Source: Candidatus Omnitrophota bacterium (GTDB lineage Bacteria; Omnitrophota; Omnitrophia; Omnitrophales; JACROU01). From it: a stretch of DNA of 64,000 nt. Under the pieces are notes generated by a model. It had not been told where the DNA came from and made no database searches. It worked only from the letters and a program-made list of their open reading frames with translations. This document shows, in pieces, positions 8,569 to 54,200 of this stretch (the stretch's first letter is position 1; every line of letters begins with the position of its first letter). A program made the position numbers and the translations under genes. The stretch covers positions 38,501 to 102,500 of the forward strand of contig JAJDCD010000023.1 of the NCBI GenBank assembly GCA_029261035.1, given 5' to 3'.

Positions 8569-8602
8569 TGACTGTCACCAGGCTGCGTTCTCGCAGACCA
8601 TG

Positions 8603-8626
8603 GTGACTGTCACTACGTTTTTTGGC
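8603..8626 (+). terminator. Rho-independent terminator candidate after the giant gene (GTGACTGTCAC hairpin + T6)
   Basis: gtgactgtcac at 8603..8613 followed by tacgtttttt. A second copy of the palindrome overlaps the stop codon at 8568..8578, with a ctgcg-ttct-cgcag hairpin between the two. Confidence 0.5.
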
Positions 8627-8725: not shown

Positions 8726-8749
8726 GTGCCAGGTCTAAAGACCTGGCAC
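8726..8749. repeat. Family F hairpin (GTGCCAGG...CCTGGCAC), copy 1
   Basis: gtgccaggtct-aa-agacctggcac forms a perfect 11-bp stem. The same GTGCCAGG/CCTGGCAC core occurs at 54201..54252 and 61195..61235. Confidence 0.6.
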
Positions 8750-8769: not shown

Positions 8770-8827
8770 GGGGACACGCACTTTTGTCACAATTGCTCTC
8801 GCAATGGTTACAAAAGTTTATGTCCCC
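8770..8827. repeat. Family C imperfect-palindrome repeat (~58 bp), copy 1
   Basis: ggggacacgcacttttgtcacaattg...caatggttacaaaagtttatgtcccc. Near-identical copies lie at 35863..35919 (reverse), 45500..45559 and 60992..61048. Confidence 0.7.
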
Positions 8828-10015: not shown

Positions 10016-11215
10016 TCACTTTTGATTATTAGCTTTTAGTAACAATATAATTCCTACAGTCAGAACTACTATTAATTCTAAAATTGCGATTCTGAAATTG
10101 AATTGATCTGCAATTAAAGCAAAAAGGGCCATGGAAAAGCAAGAAAGTTTTGTTGTCATTCCATAGATCCCAAAAAATTCCCCAATTTTTTCTTTTGGAG
10201 AAATTTGAATTAAATATTTGCGACCCGAGGTCCAAATGCCAGCAAAGCTAAAGGATCCAAAAAGAATAACGCTGGATAAGGCTATAATTGGGTTTGGGGC
10301 GATGGTGAGTATGATGAGACAAATCCAAAGAGAAAGGGCAGAGAAAAAAAGAATTTTAAAAGCACCCACGCGGTCTGTAATAAAAGCGAGAGTAAATCCA
10401 AAAATAGCAGCGGCTAAGTTAGATCCAATAAGAATGAGGATGACCGAGCCTTGTTCTAGTCCAAAAGTGAATTTCAAAAAAACAGAAAGCCAAAGAATGA
10501 CGGCGTTCATCGCTTCAAGAATAAAAAAATGAGCTACAAAAAAATAAAAAACTTTTTTGTGATGAGGGATTTCTAATAATGTATGAGTTACTTCTTTGAA
10601 GTATTTACTGACATCTTTAAAACTAAAAGGCTCTGGGTTTGTGACTCTTCTTTCAGGAACATTCATAAATAGAGGTATTGCGGCCAGAAAATAAAAAATG
10701 CCGACCATTGGAAAAACAAAACGGGTTCCTAAGTAGTTTTGCACTAAGTAAGCCAATGGCAGAGCTAGAAGAACTCCCGTATAGCCTAAACCTGTTCCAA
10801 CTCCTGAAACCCAACCCTGTTTTTCGGGTGGGCTCACAACGGGAAGAAGTGAGTTGTAAAAGACCAGGCTGAGAAGAAATGAAAAATGAGCGACGGAAAA
10901 GAATACGAGTAGCCATATCAGTTGAGAAGAAAGACCTAAAAAAGCTGTAAAAAAACAGGTGAGACAGGTACTGATAAGGAGGTAAAACTTTGTTTTTCCG
11001 GTTCTGTCTGCTACGGCACCCATGGCTGGAGAGAAAACCCCAGCAAGAATCATCACTAGAGAAGCGGTTAAGCCTAATGAGGCCTTCCATTCTGTGATCG
11101 ATGTGACATAAAGGGGGAGAAATAAGGTCACAATCGCAGCAGAATAGAGGGTGTTGGCCAAGTCATACAGGGCCCAACTAGTGGTTTTCTTGTGGTCGAG
11201 TTGCTGGCTATCCAT
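10016..11215 (-). CDS. MFS transporter, UMF1/Atg22-like family
   Basis: Multi-pass membrane protein containing the WALYDLANTLYS motif characteristic of UMF1 family transporters. The start was chosen at MDSQQ (nt 11215); the longer ORF reaching 11284 is less likely. Confidence 0.7.
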   Translation of the reverse strand: MDSQQLDHKKTTSWALYDLANTLYSAAIVTLFLPLYVTSITEWKASLGLTASLVMILAGVFSPAMGAVADRTGKTKFYLLISTCLTCFFTAFLGLSSQLIWLLVFFSVAHFSFLLSLVFYNSLLPVVSPPEKQGWVSGVGTGLGYTGVLLALPLAYLVQNYLGTRFVFPMVGIFYFLAAIPLFMNVPERRVTNPEPFSFKDVSKYFKEVTHTLLEIPHHKKVFYFFVAHFFILEAMNAVILWLSVFLKFTFGLEQGSVILILIGSNLAAAIFGFTLAFITDRVGAFKILFFSALSLWICLIILTIAPNPIIALSSVILFGSFSFAGIWTSGRKYLIQISPKEKIGEFFGIYGMTTKLSCFSMALFALIADQFNFRIAILELIVVLTVGIILLLKANNQK

Positions 11216-11371: not shown

Positions 11372-11722
11372 ATGAATGAAGCTGTACTGATATTTACTCT
11401 TATTTTCTCTGCTTTGATTGTAGGAACCTTACTGGGATTACATCTTTTATTGAGTCCAAAGAACCCTAACTCAGTAAAGTCCGCTCCTTTTGAGTGCGGA
11501 AAGGACCCAATTTCTGAGCCTAAAGGGCGATTATCGGTACGATTTTATATTGTTGCGATGCTTTTTCTTATTTTTGATATCGAACTTGTGTTTCTTTATC
11601 CCTGGGCTGTTTTGTTTAGAGATTTAGGGGTTGTTGGATTTTTGGACATGCTTGTCTTTATTGTTATTTTGATGACAGGCTTTATTTATGCCTGGAAAAA
11701 GGGAGCTTTAAAATGGAGCTAA
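11372..11722 (+). CDS. nuoA: NADH-quinone oxidoreductase subunit A
   Basis: 116 aa, 3 TM segments, FECG...P motif typical of NuoA/ND3. Confidence 0.9.
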   Translation: MNEAVLIFTLIFSALIVGTLLGLHLLLSPKNPNSVKSAPFECGKDPISEPKGRLSVRFYIVAMLFLIFDIELVFLYPWAVLFRDLGVVGFLDMLVFIVILMTGFIYAWKKGALKWS

Positions 11723-12237
11723 CTGCCCCACAAAAAGAAAATATTCAAAAAATTGAACACTCTAACTTGTTTACTCCTGGTTTTTTTAGCTCAAAGGTAT
11801 CTGAGGTTGTGGGTTGGGCAAGAAAGAATTCGATCTTTCAGTTTCCAATGGTAACGGCTTGTTGTGGAATGGAATACATGTCTGTTGCTTGTTCTCATTA
11901 TGATATCGATCGTTTTGGAGCGGGTTTTCCTCGTTTTAGTCCGCGTCAATCCGATGTTCTCTTTGTGGTTGGAACCATTAGTCATAAGATGGCGCCTGTG
12001 ATGAAACGTATTTATGAACAGATGACAGAACCTAAGTGGGTTGTTGCCTTTGGCGTGTGTACTTGTACCGGGGGTTTTTATGATAATTATGCAACGGTTC
12101 AGGGGATCGATACGATTATTCCTGTCGATGTGTATATCCCTGGATGTCCTCCAAGACCAGAGACTGTGATTGATGGACTTATTAAACTTCAAGAAAAAAT
12201 TGAACACTCTGGTTTCGAATCCAGACCTGGAAAGTAA
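11713..12237 (+). CDS. nuoB: NADH-quinone oxidoreductase subunit B
   Basis: CCGMEYM and GCPP Fe-S ligand motifs. Overlaps the nuoA stop codon. Confidence 0.92.
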   Translation: MELTAPQKENIQKIEHSNLFTPGFFSSKVSEVVGWARKNSIFQFPMVTACCGMEYMSVACSHYDIDRFGAGFPRFSPRQSDVLFVVGTISHKMAPVMKRIYEQMTEPKWVVAFGVCTCTGGFYDNYATVQGIDTIIPVDVYIPGCPPRPETVIDGLIKLQEKIEHSGFESRPGK

Positions 12238-12245
12238 TCTAAAAA

Positions 12246-12728
12246 ATGACTGATTTAATAGAAGTAATTCAAAATAAATTCCCAGATTTAGTCGAGTCTT
12301 CTCATAGCCAATGTGGCGACCAGACCGTTGTGCTCAAAAAAGAAGGTCTTTTAACGGTAATGAAGTACGTTCAACATGAGCCTTCTCTTCATTTCAATAT
12401 GTTGATGGATCTTACGGCTGTAGATTACTGGGCTCAACTTAGAAAACCTCGCTTTGATGTGGTTTATCATTTGTATTCAACAACAAAAAATCATCGATTG
12501 CGTATTAAAGTTCAAGTAAGTGAAAAAGAGTGTGAAGTAGATTCGTTAACTTCTTTTTGGCCATCCGCGAATTGGTTTGAAAGAGAAGTGTGGGATATGT
12601 TTGGCGTTAAATTTAAGGGCCATCCAAATATGAAACGTATTTTGATGTACGAAGAGTTTAAAGGGCATCCGTTGAGAAAAGATTATATGTATAACAAAAG
12701 ACAACCTCTTGTGGGGCCTGTGAATTAA
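12246..12728 (+). CDS. nuoC: NADH-quinone oxidoreductase subunit C
   Basis: EREVWDMFGVKFKGHPNMKRIL signature of NuoC/30-kDa subunit. Confidence 0.9.
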   Translation: MTDLIEVIQNKFPDLVESSHSQCGDQTVVLKKEGLLTVMKYVQHEPSLHFNMLMDLTAVDYWAQLRKPRFDVVYHLYSTTKNHRLRIKVQVSEKECEVDSLTSFWPSANWFEREVWDMFGVKFKGHPNMKRILMYEEFKGHPLRKDYMYNKRQPLVGPVN

Positions 12729-12763
12729 GTACGGAAGTCTGATAGTTATAGAAAAAGGAAAAA

Positions 12764-14137
12764 ATGAGCGAATATTCAAAATTAGATGTAACTCAAGAAA
12801 CGATTGATGCTGAGACGGAAGGGATGACGATCAATATGGGTCCTGCCCATCCCGCTATGCATGGTGTTGTCCGTCTGATTATGAATTTAGATGGGGAACG
12901 CATCCGTAAAGTGGATGTTGAGATTGGTTATTTGCATCGAGCGTTTGAAAAGTCGGCAGAGCAAGCCGGTTATCTGCAGGTGATTCCTTATACGGATCGT
13001 TTAAATTATGTGTCTCCACTGATTAATAATTTTGGTTATGCGAGTGCCGTTGAAAAACTGATGGGCATTGAAACTACAGAACGTTGCCAATTTATTCGTG
13101 TGATCATGAGTGAAATTTCTCGTGTTTCGGATCATTTAACTTGTGTAGGAGCTTCAGCGATGGAGTTGGGAGCTTTTACGGCATTTCTGTATTTAATGAA
13201 AGCTAGAGAATATTTGTACGAGCTTGTTGAAGAAGTTACAGGGGCGCGCCTCACAATTTCTTATGTGCGCATCGGAGGGGTTAAGGCAGATTTTCCAGAA
13301 GGTTTTAAGGGAAGAGCGCTTAATGCGATTAAAGAAGTACGAAAAGTTTTAAAAGAAACAAATCAGCTGTTAACGCGTAATCGAATTTTTATGGATCGTT
13401 TAGAAGGAATAGGTCTGATCTCTCAGGAAGATGCGATTGCTCATGGAATTACAGGGCCGTTTCTTCGTTCGACAGGTTGTGATTTTGATTTAAGAAAAGC
13501 GAGTCCTTATTGGGTGTACGACCGTATTGATTTTGATGTCCCAGTTGGAAGTCGCGGAGATAACTATGACCGTTACTTAGTCCGTTTAGAAGAAATGGAA
13601 CAAAGTATGCGTATTATTGAAAAAGCATTCGCATTGATGAAAGAAGGAAGTATTCGCGTAGATGCTCAAGGAAAAGAAATTCCTGCATCTTTGATGGTGG
13701 ACGAAGCCAAGATGGGAAACACAAAAGGTTTCTGGCAGTTCGAACCTCAGGTGGACCCTACGCTAGAAGGAACCGCGAAAAAAAATCAGAAAGCTATTTA
13801 TCCGGATGTTGAAGATAAGAAAGAATTCATGTTGCCGGCGAAAGAAAATACATACGGCAATATTGAAGGGCTCATGAATCATTTTAAATTGATCATGATT
13901 GGTCATGGTACGAGTCCTCCTAAAGGGGAAGTTTATTTTCCTGTTGAGGGAGGGAACGGAGAGCTTGGTTTTTATGTTGTGAGCGATGGGACGGATCGTC
14001 CTTATCGAGTGCGAGTGCATCCTCCTTGCTTTCCTATTATGTCGGCTCTTCCTAAGATGTTGGAAGGGGACATGGTGGCGGATGTGATTGCGACGTTTGG
14101 TTCGGTGAATATGATTGCGGGGGAGTTGGATAGGTAG
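12764..14137 (+). CDS. nuoD: NADH-quinone oxidoreductase subunit D
   Basis: NMGPAHPAMHGVVRL motif; 49-kDa subunit family. At 457 aa it is slightly long for this family. Confidence 0.9.
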   Translation: MSEYSKLDVTQETIDAETEGMTINMGPAHPAMHGVVRLIMNLDGERIRKVDVEIGYLHRAFEKSAEQAGYLQVIPYTDRLNYVSPLINNFGYASAVEKLMGIETTERCQFIRVIMSEISRVSDHLTCVGASAMELGAFTAFLYLMKAREYLYELVEEVTGARLTISYVRIGGVKADFPEGFKGRALNAIKEVRKVLKETNQLLTRNRIFMDRLEGIGLISQEDAIAHGITGPFLRSTGCDFDLRKASPYWVYDRIDFDVPVGSRGDNYDRYLVRLEEMEQSMRIIEKAFALMKEGSIRVDAQGKEIPASLMVDEAKMGNTKGFWQFEPQVDPTLEGTAKKNQKAIYPDVEDKKEFMLPAKENTYGNIEGLMNHFKLIMIGHGTSPPKGEVYFPVEGGNGELGFYVVSDGTDRPYRVRVHPPCFPIMSALPKMLEGDMVADVIATFGSVNMIAGELDR

Positions 14138-14163
14138 ATGTGGGGTTTGAAAGTTGCGTCGTC

Positions 14164-14259
14164 GGAATTATATTTCCCCGGCGCTCAGACAGCACAAAAG
14201 TGACTGTCACCTGGGGTGACCGTCACTTTTGTGAACTCGCGGCGGGGAAATATAATTCC
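14164..14259. mobile_element. MITE-like palindromic element, family B copy 1 (conserved core CCGGCGCTCAGACAGCACAAAA...TTTTGTGAACTCGCGGCGG with 16-bp perfect inverted flanks)
   Basis: Flanks ggaattatatttcccc / ggggaaatataattcc are exact reverse complements. The core is shared with 35270..35353 and 44890..44970. The element sits inside the nuoD-nuoE spacer. Confidence 0.7.
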
Positions 14260-14338
14260 TCCTCCTAGAGAACCAAACGTCTCGTTTTTTATTGGTTTAG
14301 GGCGAGGTGCTTCGCGCAATATGTTTTGCTAATAGCTA

Positions 14339-14410
14339 GTGACTGTCACTTTTGCTTAGTTGAAAATAGTGGAAGAGATTGGCGGTGACAGTCACTGAAG
14401 TGACAGTCAC
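14339..14410 (+). repeat. Family A palindrome array (GTGACTGTCAC ... GTGACAGTCAC tgaa GTGACAGTCAC) immediately upstream of nuoE
   Basis: Three copies of the 11-bp palindrome. The same tripartite unit recurs at 16245..16313 upstream of nuoG. The array ends 27 nt before the nuoE ATG. Confidence 0.75.
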
Positions 14411-14437
14411 CTAAAAAGCTATAGACAAAGGAATATA

Positions 14438-14902
14438 ATGGAAATACCTGAAGAGTTAAAGAAGAAGTGGGATGAGGCTGTGGCGCGGTATGAGGAGAAG
14501 AGGGCTGCTTTGCTTCCTGTGTTGAGATTAAGCCAAGATCATTTTGGGTATATTTCTGCAGAGGTGGAAGAGGCTGTTGCTCATTATATGGGGACGACAC
14601 CTGTTCATATTCGGGAAGTGGTTACTTTTTATGAGCTTTTTCATACGAAGCCTGTGGGTAAGAACAATATTCAATTCTGCCATACGCTTGCTTGTAACTT
14701 GAATGGTTGTGAGCCGTTGATTAAACAGCTGAAAGAAAAGATTGGAATTAAAGAAGGGGAGACCTCTTCCGATGGGAAGTATTCTTTTTCTAGAGCAGAG
14801 TGTTTAGGGGCTTGTGAGATGGCTCCAATGATGAAAATCAACAAAGACATTTATGGTCCGTTGGATAAAGATAAACTAAACGAGATTATTGAGAACCTCT
14901 AA
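14438..14902 (+). CDS. nuoE: NADH-quinone oxidoreductase subunit E (2Fe-2S)
   Basis: Thioredoxin-like [2Fe-2S] NuoE pattern (C..LAC...GC...C). An AAGGA ribosome-binding site precedes the start. Confidence 0.9.
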   Translation: MEIPEELKKKWDEAVARYEEKRAALLPVLRLSQDHFGYISAEVEEAVAHYMGTTPVHIREVVTFYELFHTKPVGKNNIQFCHTLACNLNGCEPLIKQLKEKIGIKEGETSSDGKYSFSRAECLGACEMAPMMKINKDIYGPLDKDKLNEIIENL

Positions 14903-14912
14903 GTTTTAATGG

Positions 14913-14937
14913 GGGACTGTCCCTTCGGGACTGTCCC
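14913..14937. repeat. Tandem GGGACTGTCCC-ttc-GGGACTGTCCC palindromes in the nuoE-nuoF spacer (variant of family A)
   Basis: Two copies of an 11-bp palindrome of the same GNGACTGTCNC form. Confidence 0.6.
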
Positions 14938-14966
14938 AGACTAAGTCTAGAAGGCAACTATTAATT

Positions 14967-16244
14967 ATGACGGAAAAATTAATTACAAAATATTTAGAAC
15001 TTACGGATGCGAATAAAATAGATGTGTTTGAATCTAAGGACGGCTATAGCCGTATCCAAAAAGTCTTAAAAGAATTAAAGCCAGAAGAAGTGGTTGATGA
15101 AGTTAAAAAATCAAACCTTCGAGGGTTGGGTGGAGCTGGTTTCTCTACTGGGATGAAGTGGAGCTTTATTCCTAAGGATGGAAAGAAACCTGTTTATCTT
15201 GTTTGTAATTGTGATGAGGCTGAGCCGGGCACTTTTAAAGACAGACATATTGTTACATCGACACCTCATTTATTGTTAGAGGGGATGATGATTGCTGCTT
15301 TTGCTGTTAATGCACATAAAGCTTACATATTTATTCGGGGTGAGTACGAACGTCCGTACGAACGTCTGGCAAAAGCGGTTGAAGAAGCTTACGCAAAAGG
15401 GTATTTAGGAAAAAATATTTTTGGTAGTGGTTATGATTTGGACATTGTTGTGCATCAAGGTGCTGGCGCTTATATTTGCGGAGAAGAATCGGCATTACTT
15501 GAAGCTCTTGAAGGAAAAAAAGGTTGGCCCAGATTAAAACCTCCTTTCCCTGCCGTTGTTGGGTTGTTTGGCTGCCCTACGGTGATCAACAATGTTGAGA
15601 CTTTATCGTATTTGCCTTTAGTGATGCAAGGTGGGGCAGATTGGTTTTCGAAATTAGCCGGAGAAGAAAAGTCTGGAGGAACGCGTCTTTTTTGTGTGAG
15701 TGGACACGTCAATAAACCTGGAATTTATGAGCTCCCTGTTGATACAACGTTAAGATCTTTGATTTATGATCATGCCGGAGGAATCCGAGGGGGTAAGCAA
15801 TTAAAAGCAGTTGTCCCTGGGGGTATTTCTGCCCCGATATTAAGTGCTGAAGAAATTGATGTCAAAATGGATTTCGATTCTTTGAGAGCTGCTGGAACCA
15901 TGGCGGGATCTGGGGGTGTGATGGTGATGGATGAAGATACCAATATGGTAGAAGCGTTGATGGTTGCTTCTCGTTTTTTTGCTCACGAATCTTGCGGCCA
16001 GTGTTCTCCTTGTCGTGAAGGAAGTGCCTGGCTTTATAAAATTGTGAAACGTATTAATGAAGGTGAAGGCCGTGTTGAGGACTTAGATAGTATGTTGTCT
16101 ATTGCAGGTAATATTTCTGGAACGACTATTTGTGCGTTAGGGGATGCTGCAGCAATGCCTGTCACAAGTTATATTAAAAAATTTAGAAGTGATTTTGAAG
16201 ATTATATTAGTGACTGTCACTTGCCTGTGGAAACACAGAGCTAA
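14967..16244 (+). CDS. nuoF: NADH-quinone oxidoreductase subunit F (NADH/FMN binding, 4Fe-4S)
   Basis: GLGGAGFSTGMKW, ESCGQCSPCREG motifs. A GTGACTGTCAC palindrome (16210..16220) lies within the last codons. Confidence 0.93.
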   Translation: MTEKLITKYLELTDANKIDVFESKDGYSRIQKVLKELKPEEVVDEVKKSNLRGLGGAGFSTGMKWSFIPKDGKKPVYLVCNCDEAEPGTFKDRHIVTSTPHLLLEGMMIAAFAVNAHKAYIFIRGEYERPYERLAKAVEEAYAKGYLGKNIFGSGYDLDIVVHQGAGAYICGEESALLEALEGKKGWPRLKPPFPAVVGLFGCPTVINNVETLSYLPLVMQGGADWFSKLAGEEKSGGTRLFCVSGHVNKPGIYELPVDTTLRSLIYDHAGGIRGGKQLKAVVPGGISAPILSAEEIDVKMDFDSLRAAGTMAGSGGVMVMDEDTNMVEALMVASRFFAHESCGQCSPCREGSAWLYKIVKRINEGEGRVEDLDSMLSIAGNISGTTICALGDAAAMPVTSYIKKFRSDFEDYISDCHLPVETQS

Positions 16245-16313
16245 GTGACTGTCACTATTAGGGCATAGAAAAAATTAGAGAAAGACGGTGACAGTCACTA
16301 AAGTGACAGTCAC
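16245..16313 (+). repeat. Family A palindrome array upstream of nuoG
   Basis: gtgactgtcac...ggtgacagtcac-taaa-gtgacagtcac-ctaaaagcc. Its architecture is collinear with 14339..14410. Confidence 0.75.
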
Positions 16314-16347
16314 CTAAAAGCCAATAGCTATAGGAGTTCGAAGAGTT

Positions 16348-17976
16348 ATGCCAAAAGTTACCATTGATGGTCATGAGATAGAGGTTTCTCAGGGAACAAC
16401 AATCATGCAAGCCACAAAACAGTTAGCAATTGAAGTGCCTTATTATTGTTGGCACCCAGGGCTTTCTGTTGCGGGAAATTGTCGTATGTGTCTTGTGGAT
16501 GTTGAAGGTCCTCCAAAGCCTCAAATTGCGTGTTACACCCAGGTTACTGAGGGAATGGTAGTCCATACGCAGTCTGAGAAGGCGAAGAAAGCACGTAAAG
16601 GAACTTTGGAGTTTTTGCTTTCGAATCATCCTTTGGATTGTCCCGTATGTGACCAAGCTGGAGAGTGTGACCTACAAAATTTTTATATGGATCACGGGCA
16701 ATATGATTCTCGATTTGATGAACAAAAACACAAAAAGAAAAAAGCTCAGCCCGTAGGGGAAAACGTGATGTTGGATCAAGAGCGCTGTGTTCTTTGTTCT
16801 CGCTGTGTTCGGTTTTGTGATGAAATTACAGGTACCGGAGAACTGGGTATTGTGAATCGAGGAAGTCATGAAGAGATTACCGTGTTTCCTGGCAAAGAGG
16901 TCAATAATGCTTACTCAGGTAATGTTGTTGATATTTGTCCTGTCGGGGCTTTAACGGATCGTGATTTTCGTTTTAAATGTCGTGTTTGGTATCTTTCCAG
17001 TCAAGACTCGGTATGTCCGGGGTGTTCTCAAGGTTGTAACATTCGTATTGATTCTAATTTATCTCGACCTCAGCATGGAGAGGGTGAGCGAGTGATGCGT
17101 TTAAAGCCAAGAGAAAACTTGAACGTGAATGATTACTGGATGTGTGACGAGGGTCGTTATAACTATAATTTTATTGATCGTAATCGTATTCAAACAGCTT
17201 CTCGAGTTAAAGAAGGGGTTGTTGAAGAAATTTTATTTGAGGATGCAGTTGATTCTTTGGCAAGTGTTTTAGGAGATGCAGTTAGAGAGCAGAGACATGG
17301 ACGTATCGGGGTTCTTGTTTCAACGCAGTTGACCAACGAAGATCTTTTCTTTGTTAAAAAGTTCTTCAAAACTAATCTGGGGATGGATGCAGTAGAATCT
17401 CGTTTTTCATTTCCTGAAGGAAGTAGTGATGACTTTTTGATTAAAGCAGATAAAAGCCCAAATACAGCAGGGGCACAAGCTTTAGAAGTAATTGCTTCTG
17501 GAACGTATCAATCTGGGGAAGATCTAATTGATAAAACGATTGCAGGAGAGTTTGATGTTTTAATTTCTTTCGGAGTCGATATTGATGGGTTGCTAGGAAA
17601 AGAAAAATTAGATGCGATTCTTGAGAAAGTAACATTACTTGCTTATGTTGGCAGTAATCACAATGAAACATCTAAAAAAGCACAGTTGGTTATTCCGAGT
17701 ACGGTTTATGCAGAAAAAGATGGAACCTTTACCAATGTTCATGGAAGGGTTCAGCGTATTTGGCCTGCATTTCCTCCTTTAGGACAAGCTAGACCCGAAT
17801 GGCAGATTATTTGTGACCTTTCAGAAAAGACAGGTTTCTCTGTGTCTGCAGATGATGCGGAATCTATTTTTAGTGAAATCACACAAACAGTTTCTTCTTT
17901 TCAAGGGTTGAGTTATGAAAAACTAGGAAAAGAAGGAAGTCTATTGAGCACAGTTAAAGAAACTGTAGAGAAATAG
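16348..17976 (+). CDS. nuoG: NADH-quinone oxidoreductase subunit G (short form)
   Basis: N-terminal 2Fe-2S CWHPGLSVAGNCRMCLV, 4Fe-4S cysteine clusters, molybdopterin-like domain. At 542 aa it is shorter than enterobacterial NuoG. Confidence 0.9.
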   Translation: MPKVTIDGHEIEVSQGTTIMQATKQLAIEVPYYCWHPGLSVAGNCRMCLVDVEGPPKPQIACYTQVTEGMVVHTQSEKAKKARKGTLEFLLSNHPLDCPVCDQAGECDLQNFYMDHGQYDSRFDEQKHKKKKAQPVGENVMLDQERCVLCSRCVRFCDEITGTGELGIVNRGSHEEITVFPGKEVNNAYSGNVVDICPVGALTDRDFRFKCRVWYLSSQDSVCPGCSQGCNIRIDSNLSRPQHGEGERVMRLKPRENLNVNDYWMCDEGRYNYNFIDRNRIQTASRVKEGVVEEILFEDAVDSLASVLGDAVREQRHGRIGVLVSTQLTNEDLFFVKKFFKTNLGMDAVESRFSFPEGSSDDFLIKADKSPNTAGAQALEVIASGTYQSGEDLIDKTIAGEFDVLISFGVDIDGLLGKEKLDAILEKVTLLAYVGSNHNETSKKAQLVIPSTVYAEKDGTFTNVHGRVQRIWPAFPPLGQARPEWQIICDLSEKTGFSVSADDAESIFSEITQTVSSFQGLSYEKLGKEGSLLSTVKETVEK

Positions 17977-17988
17977 TTAGAGGAACGT

Positions 17989-19080
17989 ATGAGTGTCGTA
18001 TTTATCCAATCAACATTACAACTTGTAGCCGTCTTCGCTTTTTTTATGGGAGTTCTGTCTTTGGCAGGGCTTCTAACTTGGGTTGAGAGAAAGCAAAGTG
18101 CCGTTATGCAAGATCGTATTGGAGCTAACCGAGCGGAGATTTTTGGATTTCGTTTTTTTGGTTTATTTCATATTATTGCAGATGCGATTAAGATGTTAAC
18201 CAAAGAGAGCTTTATTCCCGCAAAAGCAGATAAGTTTTTATATCAGCTTGCACCCATTATTTCTGTTTTTTTTGCCTTGATTACTTTTGCAGCGATTCCT
18301 TTCGGCAATGATCTGAAATTTGGAGAGTATGTCGTTCCTCTTCAAGGGCTTGATTTCAATGTGGGTCTTCTCTTTATTTTTGCGATGTTATCTATCGCGG
18401 TCTATGGAGTTATATTGGCCGGCTTTTCTTCGCAAAGTAACTTTTCTTTTTTAGGAGGTTTACGAGCAACCTCTCAGTTACTTGCTTACGAAATGGCCAT
18501 GGGAATTTCGATTATAGGCTTGGTTATGTGTTATGGATCTTTGAATTTAAATGAATTGGTTCATTCCCAGGGGGATTATTTGTGGGGTTGGTTACCAAAG
18601 TGGGGATTTTTTTTACAGCCTTTAGGCTTTATTATTTTTCTTATTGCAGGGATTGCAGAAAGTAAGCGAGTTCCTTTTGATATTCCAGAAGGAGAGTCTG
18701 AAATTGTAGGGTACTTTGTGGAATACAGTGGAATGCGATTCGGCTTATTTTTCTTAACAGATTTCTTGGAAACAATTTTAATTTCTTGTTTGGCGGCAGT
18801 TCTTTTTTTTGGCGGCTGGCAGGTTCCAGGGCTTTTTGAGGACGGTTTTCATTTTTGGAATGGGGTTGTCTGGAATTTACCTTCATTTGTAGTTACAATC
18901 ATTGGTGTTTTTGCTTTTATTTTTAAAATTGCTTTCTTTTGTTGGTTTTTAATGACGATTCGTTGGACATTGCCTCGATTCCGTTATGATCAATTGATGC
19001 ATTTGGGATGGAAAATTCTATTTCCACTCTCTATTGCAAATATTCTTATTACAGGAACCGTCATTCTTTTATTAAGCTAA
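17989..19080 (+). CDS. nuoH: NADH-quinone oxidoreductase subunit H
   Basis: 8-TM ND1 family protein with the conserved EGESE..GY..EYSG motif. Confidence 0.92.
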   Translation: MSVVFIQSTLQLVAVFAFFMGVLSLAGLLTWVERKQSAVMQDRIGANRAEIFGFRFFGLFHIIADAIKMLTKESFIPAKADKFLYQLAPIISVFFALITFAAIPFGNDLKFGEYVVPLQGLDFNVGLLFIFAMLSIAVYGVILAGFSSQSNFSFLGGLRATSQLLAYEMAMGISIIGLVMCYGSLNLNELVHSQGDYLWGWLPKWGFFLQPLGFIIFLIAGIAESKRVPFDIPEGESEIVGYFVEYSGMRFGLFFLTDFLETILISCLAAVLFFGGWQVPGLFEDGFHFWNGVVWNLPSFVVTIIGVFAFIFKIAFFCWFLMTIRWTLPRFRYDQLMHLGWKILFPLSIANILITGTVILLLS

Positions 19081-19117
19081 ATTAGCGCTAAAGAGAAAGT
19101 GTTAGACAGAGGACGTT

Positions 19118-19678
19118 ATGGCAACAATACAAGTTGAACGAAAAAAAATGAATTTGTTGGAGCGGATATATCTTCCGGAAATTATCCGAGGGTTTAGGAT
19201 TACAACATTTCACTTCTTTAGGAATCTTTTATTTCATCTGTTTCGAGCATTTGGATTTAAAAATTTCAAAGGTGCAGTTACGTTCCAATATCCAGAAGAA
19301 CAAAGGCCTTTGTCTGACCGTTTAAGAACGCGTCATCGTCTCATGCAAAGGGAAGATGGGTCTCCTCGTTGTGTGGCTTGTATGATGTGCGAAACCGTAT
19401 GTCCTGCTAAGTGTATCTACATTGAAGCTGCAGAACATCCAGATCCGAACATTGAAAAGATTCCTGCGAGTTTTGATATTGATTTAGGAAAATGTGTGTA
19501 TTGTGGTTTTTGTGTTGAAGCTTGTCCTGAAGATGCGATTCGTATGGATACTAAAATTTTAGATATCGCGTCATTAACGAGAGGCGGACTTTATTACACA
19601 ATGGAAGAACTTCTCCACCCAGAACAGCATGGCGCTAAAATAGAAGAAGCACGTAATAAGGTTCTCCCACCAAAGTAG
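19118..19678 (+). CDS. nuoI: NADH-quinone oxidoreductase subunit I (2x4Fe-4S)
   Basis: Two ferredoxin-type cysteine motifs, CVACMMCETVCP and CVYCGFCVEACP. Confidence 0.92.
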   Translation: MATIQVERKKMNLLERIYLPEIIRGFRITTFHFFRNLLFHLFRAFGFKNFKGAVTFQYPEEQRPLSDRLRTRHRLMQREDGSPRCVACMMCETVCPAKCIYIEAAEHPDPNIEKIPASFDIDLGKCVYCGFCVEACPEDAIRMDTKILDIASLTRGGLYYTMEELLHPEQHGAKIEEARNKVLPPK

Positions 19679-19752
19679 CCATCAATTGTTAGCTAAAAAC
19701 AAAACTATTATTCCAATAAATGTCATTGCGAAGCATAGACTAAAGAGTTGAA

Positions 19753-19791
19753 GCAATCTCGGATAAAAAGATTTCTTTTGCTTGAGATTGC
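19753..19791. terminator. Hairpin between convergent nuoI (+) and nuoN (-), a candidate bidirectional terminator
   Basis: gcaatctc...gagattgc 8-bp stem enclosing an inner aaaaga-tt-tctttt hairpin. It lies in the 200-bp gap where the two nuo half-operons converge. Confidence 0.4.
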
Positions 19792-19880
19792 CGCGGCTCA
19801 TTTGCTTGCACCTCCTGCCCAACAAGATGGCGGACAGGCGTAATGACAGGCTTTTAACGTATTTGCTGATATCTATTAGC

Positions 19881-21299
19881 TTAGAAAAGGCTTGTTGCAG
19901 CTTGCTGACATAAGTGAATAAATGGACCCGGAACAACTCCCAAGATAACTACGAAACCAACCGTTAAATAAAGAGAAATTTGAGTGGATAGAGGAATGTT
20001 AATAGGAGAAGTGTCTTTGGGTTTTTCAAGAAACATTTTTCCAACAATAGAAAGATAGTAATAAGCGCTTAAGATAGCCATAAAAATTCCAATCACAGCT
20101 AACCATAAAAAACCTTCATTAACAGCGCTGTACAGCACAAGTAGTTTTGCAACAAAGCCACTGGTGGGTGGGATGCCTGTTAAAGACAATAGAGAAACAA
20201 AAAGACATGTCGCAAGCATTGGAGACTTTTCTTTTAAGCCTTCATATTCGATGACACGATCATTTTCGGAATGATTTGCAAGTAATGAAAGCACAAAAAA
20301 AGCAGCTAAGTTTGTTGCGATTAAACTAAAGAGATAAAAAAGTACAAATCCTACTCCAATAGCATCGGAAGCTAAAAACCCCATTAGAATAAAGCCAGCA
20401 TGAGACATGCTTGAGAATCCAAACAACCTCTTAATATTTTTCTGTGGAATGGCTGCAAAGTTTGCGTAAACCAATGTAGCAGCGATGATGACCGCAAAAA
20501 TAATAGAAATCTGATTTTGGATTGGCAAAAAGATTTCATAGAAGATTCTCAAAAAAATTGTTATAGCGGCTGTTTTTGAAGCAATAGAAAAGAAGGCGGT
20601 AACAGGTGTTGGCGAACCTTCGTAAACATCTGGAGCCCAAACTTGAAAAGGAACAATGGCCATCTTAAATGTTAGAGAAATAAAGATAAAAAGAAAACCT
20701 ACAATGAGCAAAGTTTGATCGGATCCGCTAGAGAGCAAAGCATTTTTAATCGTTAGGATGTCTAAGCTAGCAGAACCTCCATAAATTAAACTCATCCCTA
20801 AGAGCCCAAAAGCAGTAGAGATAGCTCCAAATATTAAGTATTTGATACCTGCTTCAATCGATGCTCGTGCATGCTTTAGGTAAGAGGTCATGATATAACT
20901 GGAAAAAGTAATAATTTCGAGGCCAATAAAGATGAGTAAGAGGTTGGTGCTGGAGACACCGAAGCTCATGCCGATAATGGCGGCAATGAGAAGAAGATAA
21001 AACTCTCCTTGTCCGCCTACTAGTTTCGTTGCGTAGGTACGAATCATTAGAGATAGAAAAAAACCAATAATGAGAAATAAAACTTTTGCCAATTTAGAAA
21101 ATTCATCTTGAACATACATTCCTTCAAACAGGGATCCGGATTCGTTCCAAAAGAAAATTTGAGCAACTAAAGCTAAAAGAAAACCCAAAGCGGTTAGTAT
21201 GCCCAGAAGAGATCTTTTATTTTTAGACAGAAGTAAATCTGAAAATAGAACAATAAATAAGGTGGCAATGAGAAATATTTCAGTAATCATTAAAAACAT
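19881..21299 (-). CDS. nuoN: NADH-quinone oxidoreductase subunit N
   Basis: 472 aa, ~14 TM segments, ND2/NuoN antiporter-like family. Confidence 0.88.
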   Translation of the reverse strand: MFLMITEIFLIATLFIVLFSDLLLSKNKRSLLGILTALGFLLALVAQIFFWNESGSLFEGMYVQDEFSKLAKVLFLIIGFFLSLMIRTYATKLVGGQGEFYLLLIAAIIGMSFGVSSTNLLLIFIGLEIITFSSYIMTSYLKHARASIEAGIKYLIFGAISTAFGLLGMSLIYGGSASLDILTIKNALLSSGSDQTLLIVGFLFIFISLTFKMAIVPFQVWAPDVYEGSPTPVTAFFSIASKTAAITIFLRIFYEIFLPIQNQISIIFAVIIAATLVYANFAAIPQKNIKRLFGFSSMSHAGFILMGFLASDAIGVGFVLFYLFSLIATNLAAFFVLSLLANHSENDRVIEYEGLKEKSPMLATCLFVSLLSLTGIPPTSGFVAKLLVLYSAVNEGFLWLAVIGIFMAILSAYYYLSIVGKMFLEKPKDTSPINIPLSTQISLYLTVGFVVILGVVPGPFIHLCQQAATSLF

Positions 21300-21304
21300 A
21301 ATGC

Positions 21305-22813
21305 TTATATGAGCTCAGAATTTGTCTTAAGCTCTTCTCCTTTTTCTATGATCTTTAATTGTGTTAATCCATTTTCAAAATCTTTGAGTGCCAGCGTGGG
21401 ACAAAAACCAATTAAGAGCAAAAAGCCAATAAGAAGAAGGAACGGCACTTTACAAAAAAGACTTTTAACAGGTTCTTCTGTATTTTGGTGACTTTCTTTA
21501 ATGGGACCAAAGAAAATATTTCGAATTGCCCTAAACATATAAATTGCAGTTAATAGGACGCATATCAGAACTCCAATGGTCAGCCATTGATATTGATTCC
21601 AAACGGCAAATAAGATAACAAGTTCGCCTGCAAAGTTTGCAAACCCAGGAACGCTGGATGCGGCAAGTGCGGCTAAAGAGAAGCAGGTTGCGGTGAAAGG
21701 CCAATTAATTGCAAGCCCTCCTAAAGCATCAATCTGTGTTGTTCCCATTTTTCTTTCAACCAGTTCTGCAATCAGAAAGAGCAGTGCGACAAGCAACCCA
21801 TGAGAAAACATTACGAGCATAGCTCCTGCTGTACCTAAACTTGTAAAACAGGCGAGTCCAATAATAACAAAACCCATATGGCTTGAACTGGAATACCCAA
21901 TTAAATTTCTTAATTCTTTTTGCGCTAGAGCAATAAAACCGACGTAAACCAAATTCATCATAATCCACAAAGCAAGCCAAGGCATCCAAAGGGCTGCTGC
22001 ATCTGGCAACATAAGAAGTCCAAAGCGAATGAGCCCATAAGCACCTACTTTTTTAAGGACACCGGCAAGAAGCATACTTCCAGCGGTAGGAGCAGAAGAA
22101 TAACCAATAGGTCCCCACGCATGAAAAGGCCACACAGCAGAAAGAATTCCAAACCCGATTAAAAAGAAAGCGAAGAGCTTATGCTGAAGGGCTAAGCTTA
22201 AAGGGTTTGCTTGAAGATGTGCGCCGAGTTGAACCATATCCATTGTTTGAATGGCAGGTAAAAAATACAATCCGAGAAGGCCGACCAAAACAAATGCAGA
22301 AGCTAAAATCGCGTAGAGTGTAAATTGCATTGCTGCAAATTTTTTCTCTCCCCGACCCCAGTTGCTAATAAGAGGGTAAGAAACTAAAGCTTCAATTTCT
22401 AAAAAGAGAAAGAAGAAAAACAAATTAACAGATAAGAATGTGCCGTAAGCACCTAAAGTGAGTAAAAGGTATAAAAGGTAAAATCCTTTAGCGTCTTTTT
22501 GAATAGAGCTACACGCATATAGCCCAGCAAAGCTGACTAAAGAAGTTAAAACAATAAGCCAAACATTAATTCCATCGACCCCTAAGTGAAGATTGATTTC
22601 AGGGGTTTGAATCCATGATAATTGGGAGATGAATTGAAAGCTCGTGTTTGTTCTGTCTAATTTTAAAAGGACAAATAGAGCGAGTGCTAAACAAGCTGAG
22701 GAGCTAATCCAAGCTATGGTTTTGATTAGCTTCAATTGAGAAGAAGGGACTAAGGCCATTAAAGCCAGAGAAGCCATTGGGATTGCAATAAAGTAAAAAG
22801 ATAAATCAATCAT
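21305..22813 (-). CDS. nuoM: NADH-quinone oxidoreductase subunit M
   Basis: 502 aa, ND4/NuoM family. Confidence 0.88.
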   Translation of the reverse strand: MIDLSFYFIAIPMASLALMALVPSSQLKLIKTIAWISSSACLALALFVLLKLDRTNTSFQFISQLSWIQTPEINLHLGVDGINVWLIVLTSLVSFAGLYACSSIQKDAKGFYLLYLLLTLGAYGTFLSVNLFFFFLFLEIEALVSYPLISNWGRGEKKFAAMQFTLYAILASAFVLVGLLGLYFLPAIQTMDMVQLGAHLQANPLSLALQHKLFAFFLIGFGILSAVWPFHAWGPIGYSSAPTAGSMLLAGVLKKVGAYGLIRFGLLMLPDAAALWMPWLALWIMMNLVYVGFIALAQKELRNLIGYSSSSHMGFVIIGLACFTSLGTAGAMLVMFSHGLLVALLFLIAELVERKMGTTQIDALGGLAINWPFTATCFSLAALAASSVPGFANFAGELVILFAVWNQYQWLTIGVLICVLLTAIYMFRAIRNIFFGPIKESHQNTEEPVKSLFCKVPFLLLIGFLLLIGFCPTLALKDFENGLTQLKIIEKGEELKTNSELI

Positions 22814-22824
22814 AAAGAGTCTCG

Positions 22825-24687
22825 CTATAATTTAAATAAAATAACAACTAAAGTAAAAATAACTACAATTTGAACTGCAAGAATCAAAGCGTACGTTTGT
22901 ACATTGCCCGTTAATAATTTTCTAGAAACATTTCCTACTTGGTAAACAACGATCCCTGTCCAGTGACTGAGAGCTTTAATAGCAATCCACTCGTTTGTAA
23001 TATCGCAGAGGCGAGCAAAGGGTTGTTGGATTTTGGAAACGTAAAAATTATAAATTTCATCTATAAAATATTTTCTTTCAAATAGTGTGTAAAGAGGACC
23101 TAATCCTTTAGATAAAGGATCTTGAGATTGAGTTTTCCTCCCGTAAATTAAGTAGGAAGAAATAAGTCCGAATAAAATAACTCCTGTTGAAATGAGAGCG
23201 AGAAAATTTCCTTCAGTGCCATGATGAGATTCATGAGCAGCTCTTCCTAAGAGTTCTGGAATTCCAAAGAACCCTGCGAAGATGGAGAAAAAAGATAAAA
23301 CAATTAAAGGAAAGAGCAGAATAAAAGGAGATTCATGAATGTCGCTTGGTTTTCTTTGTGGGCCTAAAAAGGTGAGGCTAAAAACTCTCCCCATATAAAA
23401 CGAGGTTAGAAATGTTGTTCCTAAAACAACAATGAAAGCGAGCATGGAATGTCCATGCGCGAGTGTTAAGATTTCTTCTTTACTAAAAAACCCTGATGTT
23501 GGAAACAGACCGCAAAGAGCAAGAGTTCCGATTAAAAATGTGAGTGTGGTGATAGGCATCTTTTTTGAAAGGCCACCCATTTCAAATAAGTTCTGGGTAT
23601 GCACCGCATGAATGATACAGCCTGAGCCTAAGAATAAAAGGGCTTTAAAAAATCCATGTGTGAGCAGGTGATACATTCCCGAAACGGGTCCTGCGAGACC
23701 CATGGCGAGTACCATAAACCCGAGTTGACTCATCGTAGAGAATGCGAGCACACGTTTGATATCGCTTTGGCAAACCGCCATTGTTGCTGCTGTAATCGCT
23801 GAAAGACCCCCGATTATCGCAACAATAGTAAGTAATTCTTCAGAAATCGTAAAGATGAAAAAAGTTCTGGCTAGTAAATAAACACCTGCGGCAACCATGG
23901 TTGCCGCATGGATTAAAGCGCTGACGGGTGTGGGTCCTTCCATAGCGTCTGGCAACCAAACGTGTAATGGAAGTTGAGCGGACTTACCAATAACACCACA
24001 TAAAATAAGAAGTCCTGCTAAAAGAATAGCTCCAGAAGAGATGACGCCTAGTTGAACTTGAGTGGGAATACTTTGAGCGAGCCCTGCAAAGTCAACGGTT
24101 CTAGAAACTCCAGTTGGATCAGAAAGAAACCACAAAAATAAAATTCCTAATATAAAACCAAAATCACCAACGCGATTAACTAAAAAAGCTTTTTTACTGG
24201 CGTCAGCAGCACTGTCTTTTGAAAACCAAAAACCAATTAAAAGATAAGAAGCAAGCCCAACTAATTCCCAGAAAATAAAGGTTTGAACAAAATTATTAGA
24301 AAACACAATGCCGAGCATAGCCGATGCGAAAAGTGCTAAGTAAGCAAAAAATCGAGAGTAGCCTTTATCTTCTTCCATATAACCCATCGAGAAAATAAAA
24401 ATAAGACTTCCTACTCCAGAAACCAATAACCCCATCAAAATAGAGAGTTGATCGAACAGAAGCCCCAGTTCAAAGTGAAGCCCCATTATAGAAATCCAAG
24501 GAACGGATATAACTTGAGGAAAACTGCTTGGATTGGATTGCATTTGCATGAAGAGTTGAACAATCAATACGAACGGAATAAGAAGGCTACCCACAGAAAT
24601 CCATCCACACAGCTTTTTCCATCGAAACAGAAAAAGACTGATTAAAGCAAAGCCTATAAGTGGAGAAAGAATGATGAGTGAAGTCAT
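22825..24687 (-). CDS. nuoL: NADH-quinone oxidoreductase subunit L
   Basis: 620 aa, ND5/NuoL family. Confidence 0.9.
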   Translation of the reverse strand: MTSLIILSPLIGFALISLFLFRWKKLCGWISVGSLLIPFVLIVQLFMQMQSNPSSFPQVISVPWISIMGLHFELGLLFDQLSILMGLLVSGVGSLIFIFSMGYMEEDKGYSRFFAYLALFASAMLGIVFSNNFVQTFIFWELVGLASYLLIGFWFSKDSAADASKKAFLVNRVGDFGFILGILFLWFLSDPTGVSRTVDFAGLAQSIPTQVQLGVISSGAILLAGLLILCGVIGKSAQLPLHVWLPDAMEGPTPVSALIHAATMVAAGVYLLARTFFIFTISEELLTIVAIIGGLSAITAATMAVCQSDIKRVLAFSTMSQLGFMVLAMGLAGPVSGMYHLLTHGFFKALLFLGSGCIIHAVHTQNLFEMGGLSKKMPITTLTFLIGTLALCGLFPTSGFFSKEEILTLAHGHSMLAFIVVLGTTFLTSFYMGRVFSLTFLGPQRKPSDIHESPFILLFPLIVLSFFSIFAGFFGIPELLGRAAHESHHGTEGNFLALISTGVILFGLISSYLIYGRKTQSQDPLSKGLGPLYTLFERKYFIDEIYNFYVSKIQQPFARLCDITNEWIAIKALSHWTGIVVYQVGNVSRKLLTGNVQTYALILAVQIVVIFTLVVILFKL

Positions 24688-24989
24688 TATTGTTTTAAAT
24701 CCGTAAAGTCTGTTACATCGATTGTTTTTTGAGTTCTAAAAAGTAAAATACAAATAGCCAGTCCTATGGCAACTTCTCCGGCGGCAATGGCCATAGAGAA
24801 TAGGGTGACAATTTGGCCTTCCAAATTACCATGAGCTTGAGAGAAAACAACAAAACTTAAATTCACAGCATTAAATAAGAGTTCTATAGAAAGTAAAACT
24901 AAAATTGCATTTTTTCGTGTAAAAATGCCAATCAGACCAATGGCAAAGAGAACGAAAGCGACTGTTAAATAATGAGATAAAGGAATCAT
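24687..24989 (-). CDS. nuoK: NADH-quinone oxidoreductase subunit K
   Basis: 100 aa, 3 TM segments, ND4L family. Confidence 0.9.
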   Translation of the reverse strand: MIPLSHYLTVAFVLFAIGLIGIFTRKNAILVLLSIELLFNAVNLSFVVFSQAHGNLEGQIVTLFSMAIAAGEVAIGLAICILLFRTQKTIDVTDFTDLKQ

Positions 24990-25487
24990 TTACAAATCTT
25001 TCTTCGCTAAAACTACCGAGCCAATAATGGCTACGAGCAAAATTAAAGATAAAAGTTCAAATGGAAGTAAGTATTTTGAAAATAAGAGTTTTCCTAAGCT
25101 TTCAACGGTACCTTCAACTAATACGATGTTTTCAGACGTAGTTTCTTTGAAAGAACGAACCAACATAAAAAGTCCTGCAAGAGAAAGAATGCTCAGTCCA
25201 AGACTTAGGCCATAGCGAACCGGATTTTTCCAGAAAACAGGAGACTCATTGTTGTATCCAAGCAACATGAGTACAAATAGAAACAGGACTAAAATAGCGC
25301 CAGCATACAGAGTGATATGGATTATGGCGACGAAATAAGCCTTTAAAAGCAGAAAAAGGATAGCTAAAGAGAACATGCCTACAAGAAAGCTCAGCACGCA
25401 ATAAACGGGATTTCTTAAAGTTATCGCTAAAAGTGCCGAAAATAGCAGGATACTCGAAAATAAATAAAAGGATGTTGTTTCTAGCAT
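24990..25487 (-). CDS. nuoJ: NADH-quinone oxidoreductase subunit J
   Basis: 165 aa, ND6 family; carries the VLYAGAILVLFLFVLMLL motif. Confidence 0.88.
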   Translation of the reverse strand: MLETTSFYLFSSILLFSALLAITLRNPVYCVLSFLVGMFSLAILFLLLKAYFVAIIHITLYAGAILVLFLFVLMLLGYNNESPVFWKNPVRYGLSLGLSILSLAGLFMLVRSFKETTSENIVLVEGTVESLGKLLFSKYLLPFELLSLILLVAIIGSVVLAKKDL

Positions 25488-35249: not shown

Positions 35250-35269
35250 GAAGTTGGGTTTTGTTGGGC

Positions 35270-35353
35270 GACCTGGAAAGGTTCCCGGCGCTCAGACAGC
35301 ACAAAAATTGTGATGCGATTTTTGTGAACTCGCGGCGGGAACCTTTCCAGGTC
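35270..35353. mobile_element. MITE-like palindromic element, family B copy 2
   Basis: gacctggaaaggttcccg / cgggaacctttccaggtc perfect inverted flanks around the conserved core cggcgctcagacagcacaaaaat...cgatttttgtgaactcgcggcgg. Confidence 0.7.
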
Positions 35354-35388
35354 GCTTAAGTTATAACTTTTTTTTGGTATTGGGGGTT

Positions 35389-44838: not shown

Positions 44839-44889
44839 TATTTGAGAATTATTGTAACATAGAGGGGATAAGGGCGATAGAGGAGCGTA

Positions 44890-54149: not shown

Positions 54150-54200
54150 AATTTATAATACTAAGACTGTAGTAGAGGTCTGCCTAAATAGGCCACCCCC

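Follow-up and report, generated by a model that had tools for sequence, protein, structure and literature searches.

Repetitive extragenic palindromes (REPs), as described in Escherichia coli and Pseudomonas fluorescens, are short, imperfect palindromes that fold into hairpins (PMC3116915, PMC5581495, PMC3479197). Abundant REPs flank a single-copy gene for a REP-associated tyrosine transposase (RAYT), and REP doublets form larger hairpins, the REPINs (PMC5581495, PMC3116915); in most described REPs, a conserved, unpaired GTAG or CGTC tag is found at one end of the palindrome (PMC3733652). The E. coli RAYT, TnpA-REP, binds and cleaves the single-stranded REP hairpin (PMC3479197), and intercistronic REPs of this bacterium, for example, those between malE and malF, keep 3' exonucleases from degrading the mRNA upstream of them (Higgins et al. 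1988, cited in PMC3733652). In a 64-kb stretch of a Candidatus Omnitrophota genome (contig JAJDCD010000023.1, positions 38,501 to 102,500; hereafter, the window), copies of an 11-nucleotide (nt) palindrome, GTGACWGTCAC, are concentrated around nuoE, nuoF and nuoG, the genes of the NADH-dehydrogenase module (N-module) of respiratory complex I. The identification of these copies as a REP-type repeat can be made with good confidence; that the whole explanation holds, including the way the repeats spread and their placement in the nuo operon, is slightly less certain but still probable.

The exact motif occurs 10 times in the window (8568, 8603, 14200, 14339, 14385, 14400, 16210, 16245, 16288 and 16303) and not once in 100 dinucleotide-preserving shuffles of it, so that the palindromes, originally noticed in a reading of the sequence only, are real. 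The looser pattern GNGACWGTCNC yields 12 matches, compared with 0.13 expected; the two additional matches are the variant GGGACTGTCCC at 14913 and 14927. The exact copy at 14200 has a one-mismatch partner, GTGACCGTCAC, at 14216, a pair that was overlooked in the sequence-only reading, whereas all the copies listed there were recovered, including the variant pair in the nuoE-nuoF spacer, the copy within the last 11 codons of nuoF (16210) and those around the stop of a giant gene (8603 and 8568, the latter overlapping the TAG stop of a 2844-aa open reading frame, ORF). Every copy falls between 8.5 and 16.3 kb, in five clusters spanning 8 kb, and the remaining ~48 kb contain a single one-mismatch match, at 53731.

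The previously described tripartite unit ahead of nuoE and nuoG was reproduced as well, with the first palindrome T-centred (14339, 16245) and the second and third A-centred (14385/14400, 16288/16303) in both cases. The units of nuoE and nuoG contain spacers of 35 and 32 nt and short linkers, tgaa and taaa, and end 27 and 34 nt, respectively, before the ATG codons at 14438 and 16348. They are 80% identical across ~116 aligned nt, the non-palindromic A-rich spacer included, and have a common 3' flank, CCTAAAAGC.AATAG. This identity, extending as it does beyond the palindromes into spacer and flank, makes them paralogous copies of a single ~100-nt element.

The functional unit of the family is a pair of 11-mers folding into a hairpin rather than the lone palindrome, and any two 11-mers, direct or inverted, can pair because the 11-mer is palindromic save at its centre. 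The doublets are 26-54 nt long, occur in the forms GTGACNGTCAC and GGGACNGTCCC, with the consensus AAAAR-GTGACTGTCAC-(TTTA/TTCA/GYTTTTY)-GTGACTGTCAC-YTTTT, and fold, in single-stranded DNA or RNA, as 11-17-bp hairpins, most often with a T.T (or A.A) mismatch in the middle. Across 185,579 species genomes, a scan for such pairs detected at least 119 loci (L001-L119). At least seven of these come from Omnitrophota metagenome-assembled genomes (MAGs) and contain same-centre pairs with A-run and T-run flanks; among the matches listed, the T/T or A/A mismatch is retained in seven of the eight Omnitrophota pairs, and in one locus (L037), the sequence GTGACAGTCACtaaaGTGACAGTCAC matches window 16288-16313 exactly. 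When metagenomes were scanned for the exact A/A doublet, 22 loci were added, at least 11 of them on a single 2.17-Mb contig and three more on one of 462 kb, both contigs being from one sample. The larger contig includes a gltB gene with 73% nucleotide identity to that of the window. In this related genome, doublets as well as TT..AA and AA..TT quadruplets (L124, L126, L127, L131, L132, L135) adjoin unrelated genes, and the GGGACWGTCCC variant is also found away from nuo (L124 4113/4133, L133 5613/5626). In a tblastx comparison, the window shared with the motif-bearing genome loci only distant nuo and other homologues.

The doublets are associated with gene 3' ends. The 47 clusters in Omnitrophota-type loci include 23 located between tandem, 7 between convergent and only 1 between divergent gene pairs, that is, 30 of the 31 classifiable clusters are between tandem or convergent genes. 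The typical distance of a cluster from the stop of the upstream gene is -4 to +35 nt, and the TGA within GTGAC often is that stop. The copies were described as preceding each N-module gene, but a position just behind the preceding stop is the better description and is where the family resides in general. Because the same repeats lie behind the stops of many unrelated Omnitrophota genes, the copies in the window are not a control site specific to the NADH dehydrogenase. The high-G+C actinobacterial matches of the genome scan proved to be coding VTVT repeats and were set aside, and an array resembling clustered regularly interspaced short palindromic repeats (CRISPR) was rejected given that there is no regular repeat-spacer periodicity. 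No description of the 11-mer was found in the literature searched, where either form of it turned up only as primer or oligo coincidences.

The second line of evidence is the association of the repeats with a transposase. In L016, an Omnitrophota locus, a 205-aa ORF matches the Pfam family Y1_Tnp (E = 7.7e-12), contains an HFH motif and the sequence YIEYNPVRAG, and has the palindrome on both sides of the gene (position 12 and 680/698). The L016 protein has ~110 homologue clusters, and all the named ones are labelled Omnitrophota or Omnitrophica. As an independent test, loci from four more genomes were retrieved solely by homology to this protein. In these loci (L145, L146, L147/L148 and L149), the transposase gene occupies the same slot, 3' of a ComM/YifB-type Mg-chelatase gene, and T/T doublets are located ~40 nt before its ATG, with another copy over its stop. 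Where the motif is exact, in three loci of 20 kb (L145-L147, ~62 kb), 14 of the 16 copies are within 500 nt of the transposase gene. In L149, the repeat takes the form GGTGCCTGTCAC-gtttttt-GTGACTGGCACC, a compensatory change that preserves the hairpin and the T.T mismatch and breaks the palindrome of the 11-mer. Altogether, five Omnitrophota genomes carry a single, doublet-flanked Y1 transposase gene in conserved synteny, with the compensated variant in L149. In published terms, a Y1 transposase that is single-copy and vertically inherited and has an abundant hairpin repeat at its flanks is a RAYT, and the repeats are its REPs or REPINs (PMC5581495, PMC3116915). With doublets dispersed beside unrelated genes in relatives and flanking a Y1 (IS200-like) transposase gene, the REP-like family suggested earlier is supported, and a system of the REP/RAYT type is thereby added for Omnitrophota, whose members are known solely as uncultured cells. 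An 88-aa ORF often lies between the Mg-chelatase gene and the Omnitrophota RAYT-type gene, and L145 contains, 2 kb away, a second, partial Mg-chelatase gene together with a copy of the 88-aa ORF and a doublet of its own.

The distribution of the core is not limited to Omnitrophota. Among the matches listed, most of the loci from the genome scan belong to Chloroflexota MAGs, namely, Anaerolineae and Caldilineae; RAYT group 4 has already been reported as common in Caldilineae (PMC5581495). The Chloroflexota form, (G)GTGACAGTCAC(C)-N7-(G)GTGACTGTCAC(C), is a perfect hairpin with a 7-nt loop (e.g. L002, L020, L064), and its centres are Watson-Crick in 72 of the 81 pairs among the matches listed, including 11 G/C or C/G pairs. 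In two Chloroflexota loci, L002 and L064, Y1_Tnp genes with flanking motif clusters were identified by tblastn and confirmed with Pfam; the proteins are 22-26% identical to those of Omnitrophota. The Chloroflexota hairpins are sometimes arrayed around the Y1_Tnp gene. Similar pairs were observed in MAGs labelled Bacteroidota, Ignavibacteriota, Planctomycetota, Zixibacteria and Alphaproteobacteria, and such cross-phylum occurrence may reflect binning errors, transfer or a single REP superfamily of ancient origin.

Compared with the REP/REPIN-RAYT systems, then, the Omnitrophota family is alike in consisting of short, extragenic, imperfect palindromes that fold into hairpins, in its inverted, REPIN-like doublets, in its location at gene 3' ends and in operon interiors, in having several units grouped within a spacer, as bacterial interspersed mosaic elements do, and, in the relatives, in the single-copy, syntenic Y1 HUH transposase gene flanked by repeats. 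It differs in the lack of a GTAG or CGTC tag, in the arms of the hairpin, each of which forms an 11-nt palindrome of its own so that copies pair in either orientation, in the central T.T mismatch that is kept in the Omnitrophota copies, in the copy number, which in the related genome is apparently in the tens rather than the hundreds, and in the host, Omnitrophota, with the same core in Chloroflexota. The palindromic arms, the conserved mismatch, the missing tag, the transposase gene fixed beside comM and the core common to Chloroflexota REPs make this an unusual member of the class. The Correia elements and paired DNA uptake sequences (DUS) of Neisseria and the hairpins of the miniature inverted-repeat transposable element (MITE) type are also dispersed at gene ends and are possible terminators or RNase targets, but the doublets are much shorter, have no terminal inverted repeats with target-site duplication and are tied to a transposase of the Y1 and not the DDE type, and they are far less dense than the Neisseria DUS.

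All five clusters in the window, described here on the plus strand, fold strongly (z from -2.6 to -12). At the end of the giant gene (8564-8623, spanning the TAG stop), a REP doublet hairpin, CGTAGTGACTGTCACCA..TGGTGACTGTCACTACG, encloses a small inner hairpin and is followed by TTTTTT; the fold of 8560-8625 has -41.1 kcal/mol (z = -7.3) and, with UUUUUU coming next, looks like an intrinsic terminator, that is, a hairpin with a U-tract. A composite 96-nt hairpin (14164-14259) lies 3' of the nuoD stop (14160-14262, -63.1 kcal/mol, z = -12.0). Its outer arms and core, CCGGCGCTCAGACAGCACAAAA..TTTTGTGAACTCGCGGCGG, are those of a second repeat family, and its apex (14193-14233) is a REP doublet, GTGACTGTCAC-ctggg-GTGACCGTCAC, where the two paralogous copies have a short loop. 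The tripartite unit ahead of nuoE (14338-14411) has the structure AGTGACTGTCAC(T)-35 nt-GTGACAGTCAC-tgaa-GTGACAGTCAC-C, with the fold of 14335-14415 at -29.1 kcal/mol (z = -3.7). The variant doublet, GGGACTGTCCC-ttc-GGGACTGTCCC (14912-14938), begins 10 nt past the nuoE stop and forms a hairpin with a central U.U mismatch (14908-14942, the GGGAC variant, -18.0 kcal/mol, z = -2.6). Finally, a four-copy REPIN-like unit at 16207-16316 (T at 16210, T at 16245, A at 16288, A at 16303) folds into two nested perfect helices and an inner CCUGUG-gaaa-CACAG hairpin (16204-16320, -49.0 kcal/mol, z = -8.2); it takes in the stop and the last 11 codons of nuoF and extends to a point 34 nt ahead of the nuoG ATG. 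None of the three nuo-internal units at 14338-14411, 14912-14938 and 16207-16316 has a U-tract on its 3' side, where ctaaaa or agacta is found instead. The whole window gave no match to Rfam at gathering thresholds, and local regions searched at E <= 1 gave solely generic matches to miRNA-precursor-like hairpins, far below threshold.

The nuo genes allow comparison with relatives. Pfam confirms nuoA to nuoH (11372-19080); nuoD (12764-14137), nuoE (14438-14902), nuoF (14967-16244) and nuoG (16348-17976), all on the plus strand, form the immediate context of the repeats (12764-17976). Comparison of NuoF with its homologues groups the window with proteins named as Omnitrophota, the best matches other than itself being 81% and 72-74% identical. 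Inspection of the nuo loci of relatives, proposed as a check in the sequence-only reading, did not reveal the motif in any of the four loci (L121, L122, L150 and L151, the last one from the same MAG as L037 and L118, GCA_016206875.1). The D-E, E-F and F-G spacers measure 300, 64 and 103 nt in the window, compared with 16 nt, 51 nt and an 8-nt overlap in the closest relative (L121, NuoF 81% identical). Given that L121 has almost no D-E or F-G spacer, the long spacers of the window are lineage-specific insertions.

Hairpins of other kinds are present at one or more of these junctions in three of the four relatives, each time of a different sequence. The E-F spacer of L121 contains the hairpin GGGACGGTTCTT..AAGAACCGTCCC; L122 (NuoF 72%) has unrelated, low-complexity hairpins in most of the nuo spacers looked at (B-C, C-D, D-E, F-G, G-H and H-I); and in L150 (1290-1365) and L151 (2060-2141), other hairpin repeats cover the nuoF 3' end and encode a variable NuoF tail. 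The tail of NuoF in the window, SDCHLPVETQS, is element-encoded and not conserved. The long hairpins in the nuo spacers of L122, L150 and L151 are built from lineage-specific simple repeats (e.g. cgaaattcgaaat, gtcctgagtcctg, tgaaaagtgaaaa, cgtcagtcgtcag and cgtacttcgt) and often extend into the nuoF 3' end, producing variable C-terminal tails.

These findings can be combined in the following scenario, parts of which are modelled on better studied systems. Inverted doublet pairs form REPIN-like units, and a RAYT-type Y1 HUH enzyme would be the likely agent of their dispersal, acting through single-stranded hairpin intermediates; by analogy with E. coli TnpA-REP (PMC3479197), the Omnitrophota RAYT is expected to bind and cleave the doublet hairpin. 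For the genome at hand, we infer mobilisation by a RAYT from the known REP/RAYT paradigm and the doublet-flanked gene of the relatives. The copies are located directly behind or over stop codons and, where a U-tract is present, are terminator-like. At the nuoD-E, E-F and F-G junctions, four clusters have built up, at least partly through duplication of the ~100-nt unit, and one of these has rewritten the last 11 codons of nuoF. Such local amplification is visible in the paralogy of the nuoE and nuoG units, and selection may contribute to the density of the nuo clusters.

As to the effect on expression, the nuo copies have no sense-strand U-tract and are therefore best regarded as read-through intercistronic stem-loops. 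These could serve as 3' exonuclease barriers or processing sites, shifting the relative stability of the nuoA-D, nuoE, nuoF and nuoG segments. Such an RNA-level effect, put forward in the sequence-only reading as an RNA processing or stability element, would be a reasonable consequence of the repeats; it is a tentative proposal, made by likeness to the E. coli intercistronic REPs, and much more doubtful than the REP identity itself, being somewhat less likely than not. Like the malE-malF REPs, the nuo units are stable hairpins within an operon, just past stops and without a U-tract; they differ in that one unit reaches into the coding sequence at the end of nuoF and in that the effect here is assigned by analogy. 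Sequence-specific regulation by the nuo copies is unlikely.

Three observations weigh against the REP/RAYT explanation. No RAYT gene was found within the 64-kb window. A GTAG or CGTC tag was not seen in the flank profiles of 44 doublets, which contain only AAAAR on the 5' side and YTTTT on the 3' side (there is one chance GTAG, at copy 8565). Finally, four clusters within 2.2 kb are far denser than the ~1 cluster per 50-200 kb in the related contig. The missing tag is no bar to membership in the REP class because untagged REP-like families are acknowledged, the tag being a marker of superfamilies (PMC3733652). As to the density, neutral insertion alone leaves the placement unexplained, so that local amplification or selection has to be added.

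In an alternative account, the repeats of this genome might be relics or otherwise independent of a RAYT, having spread by local duplication, gene conversion or recombination, or as a MITE of another element, and be devoid of function. There is no RAYT in the window, the nuoE and nuoG units resemble a local segmental duplication, and within the 64 kb the copies are tightly clustered rather than dispersed. Nevertheless, the RAYT association held in every Omnitrophota RAYT locus examined, and both the doublets and the GGGAC variant are common to the related genome, at non-orthologous sites, which makes this account improbable, although it is the best of the alternatives.

A dedicated riboregulator, in which the first palindrome pairs with the second or the third and thereby controls the translation or processing of nuoE and nuoG, appears less probable still. 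The region upstream of nuoE (14335-14415) indeed has two isoenergetic folds at -29.1 kcal/mol, with T1 paired with A3 or a local A2/A3 hairpin, and the paralogous units are located 27 and 34 nt ahead of start codons. The alternative pairing suggested in the sequence-only reading is thus correct as thermodynamics, but it is no evidence of a switch because it arises automatically in any cluster of such near-palindromic repeats. Moreover, the helices stop well before the Shine-Dalgarno regions, leaving them unsequestered, the relatives lack the unit and have unrelated hairpins or none at the same junctions, and there is no corresponding Rfam family.

The remaining proposal of that reading, an operator array of 11-bp palindromes bound as double-stranded DNA by a dimeric regulator of nuoE, nuoF and nuoG, accounts for the perfect 5-1-5 palindromes and their arrangement upstream of three consecutive genes. 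It is rejected, as a very unlikely interpretation, on the distribution of the copies, which are present where the unrelated giant gene of the window ends and behind many unrelated genes in relatives but not in the nuo loci L121, L122, L150 and L151; on the L149 variant, which drops the palindrome and retains the pairing between copies; and on the covariation of the partner centres in Chloroflexota (72/81 Watson-Crick), which a symmetric dimer would not impose. The half-sites are 6 bp apart, which is unusually close for a helix-turn-helix dimer. Nor is there a promoter signal above shuffle expectation: a scan of the 8-20 kb region produced 15 promoter-like sites, compared with 25.7 in shuffles, i.e. 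fewer than expected. The best candidate for an internal nuoE promoter (14229-14256) sits in a hairpin arm, and no promoter is claimed. The change of status from a candidate respiratory regulatory site to an ordinary class of genome repeats spares a hunt for the regulator.

The weakest possibility, uptake-signal-like sequences preferred by a DNA-uptake or another sequence-specific machinery of the host and often paired into terminators as in the case of the Neisseria DUS, would fit the terminator-like hairpins behind genes and the invariable location of the linked transposase gene beside a ComM-type gene, but was ruled out on density, ~1 cluster per 50-200 kb in the 2.17-Mb contig being orders of magnitude below the roughly one per kb of known uptake sequences, with single copies within genes essentially absent and the flanking of a Y1 transposase better explained by REP/RAYT, so that its probability is close to nil.

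Acceptance of the REP/RAYT explanation has practical consequences for these genomes. The repeats rewrite the C-termini of proteins, such as the NuoF tail, and will mislead predictions of terminators and operons. They also break short-read assemblies at the borders of nuoF, as illustrated by L120, a Logan contig (SRR15505518) that corresponds to window 14911-16296 and is the only public short-read contig with the exact NuoF. This contig begins in the GGGACTGTCCC doublet and ends in the nuoF-G unit, de Bruijn assemblies breaking at the gene borders; because the breaks coincide exactly with the repeats, there is indirect evidence that the repeats are multi-copy in the SRR15505518 sample.

The second repeat family comprises three copies in the window, all on the plus strand (14164-14259, 35268-35355 and 44887-44973), with minimum free energies from -59 to -70 kcal/mol. 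It has a conserved core, CCGGCGCTCAGACAGCACAAAA[A]..[T]TTTTGTGAACTCGCGGCGG, a variable apex and outer arms of 14-17 nt that are copy-specific yet perfectly complementary; the family has no Rfam match, and its core was not found in any of the 151 loci retrieved by then. The apex is the GTGACTGTCAC/GTGACCGTCAC doublet in the nuoD-E copy as opposed to a 10-12-nt loop in the other two. The presence of a doublet in place of the loop suggests that doublets can land in hairpin loops.

A more ambitious reading, taken as a whole, is rather unlikely: GTGAC-N-GTCAC would be the core of a third REP superfamily, tagless next to those with GTAG and CGTC, represented in several phyla and used by RAYT clades that are no more than distantly related; doublets may insert preferentially at the apex of pre-existing hairpins or terminators; and the N-module nest may be kept for decoupling the mRNA stability or the stoichiometry of nuoE, nuoF and nuoG. 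Insertion at the apex would explain both the copy-specific complementary flanks and the doublet in the loop of 14164-14259.

Other hairpins in the window appear to be repeated as well. A third family, GGGGA.A.G.A.TTTTG...CAAAA...GTCCCC, is represented at 8770-8827 and 60992-61048 and, in L132, at 6364-6434 and 10821-10891; at 60992-61061, the window shows 90-92% identity with each of two copies on the 2.17-Mb contig, far more than the 73% of the neighbouring gltB. Long, near-perfect intergenic hairpins (8727-8749, 54200-54253 and 61194-61236; up to 21-25 bp) have a common core, GTGCCAGG(Y)C..G(R)CCTGGCAC, and may be a further repeat family. This core resembles the L149 variant, GGTGCCTGTCAC, of the RAYT-flanking repeat.

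Among the genes, the 2844-aa (34-8568) and 1694-aa (25701-30785) ORFs contain no significant Pfam domain, the sole match being a sub-threshold one to DUF2278. In L151, a 121-aa gene for a four-helix-bundle protein similar to 23S_rRNA_IVP and bAvd (442-807) is inserted between nuoE and nuoF. The nuo cluster of the window is split (11372-25487): nuoA-I are on the plus strand, and five minus-strand ORFs converge on nuoI, matching the minus-strand proton-antiporter/Oxidored genes (nuoJ-N) of L121 and L122 by size alone.

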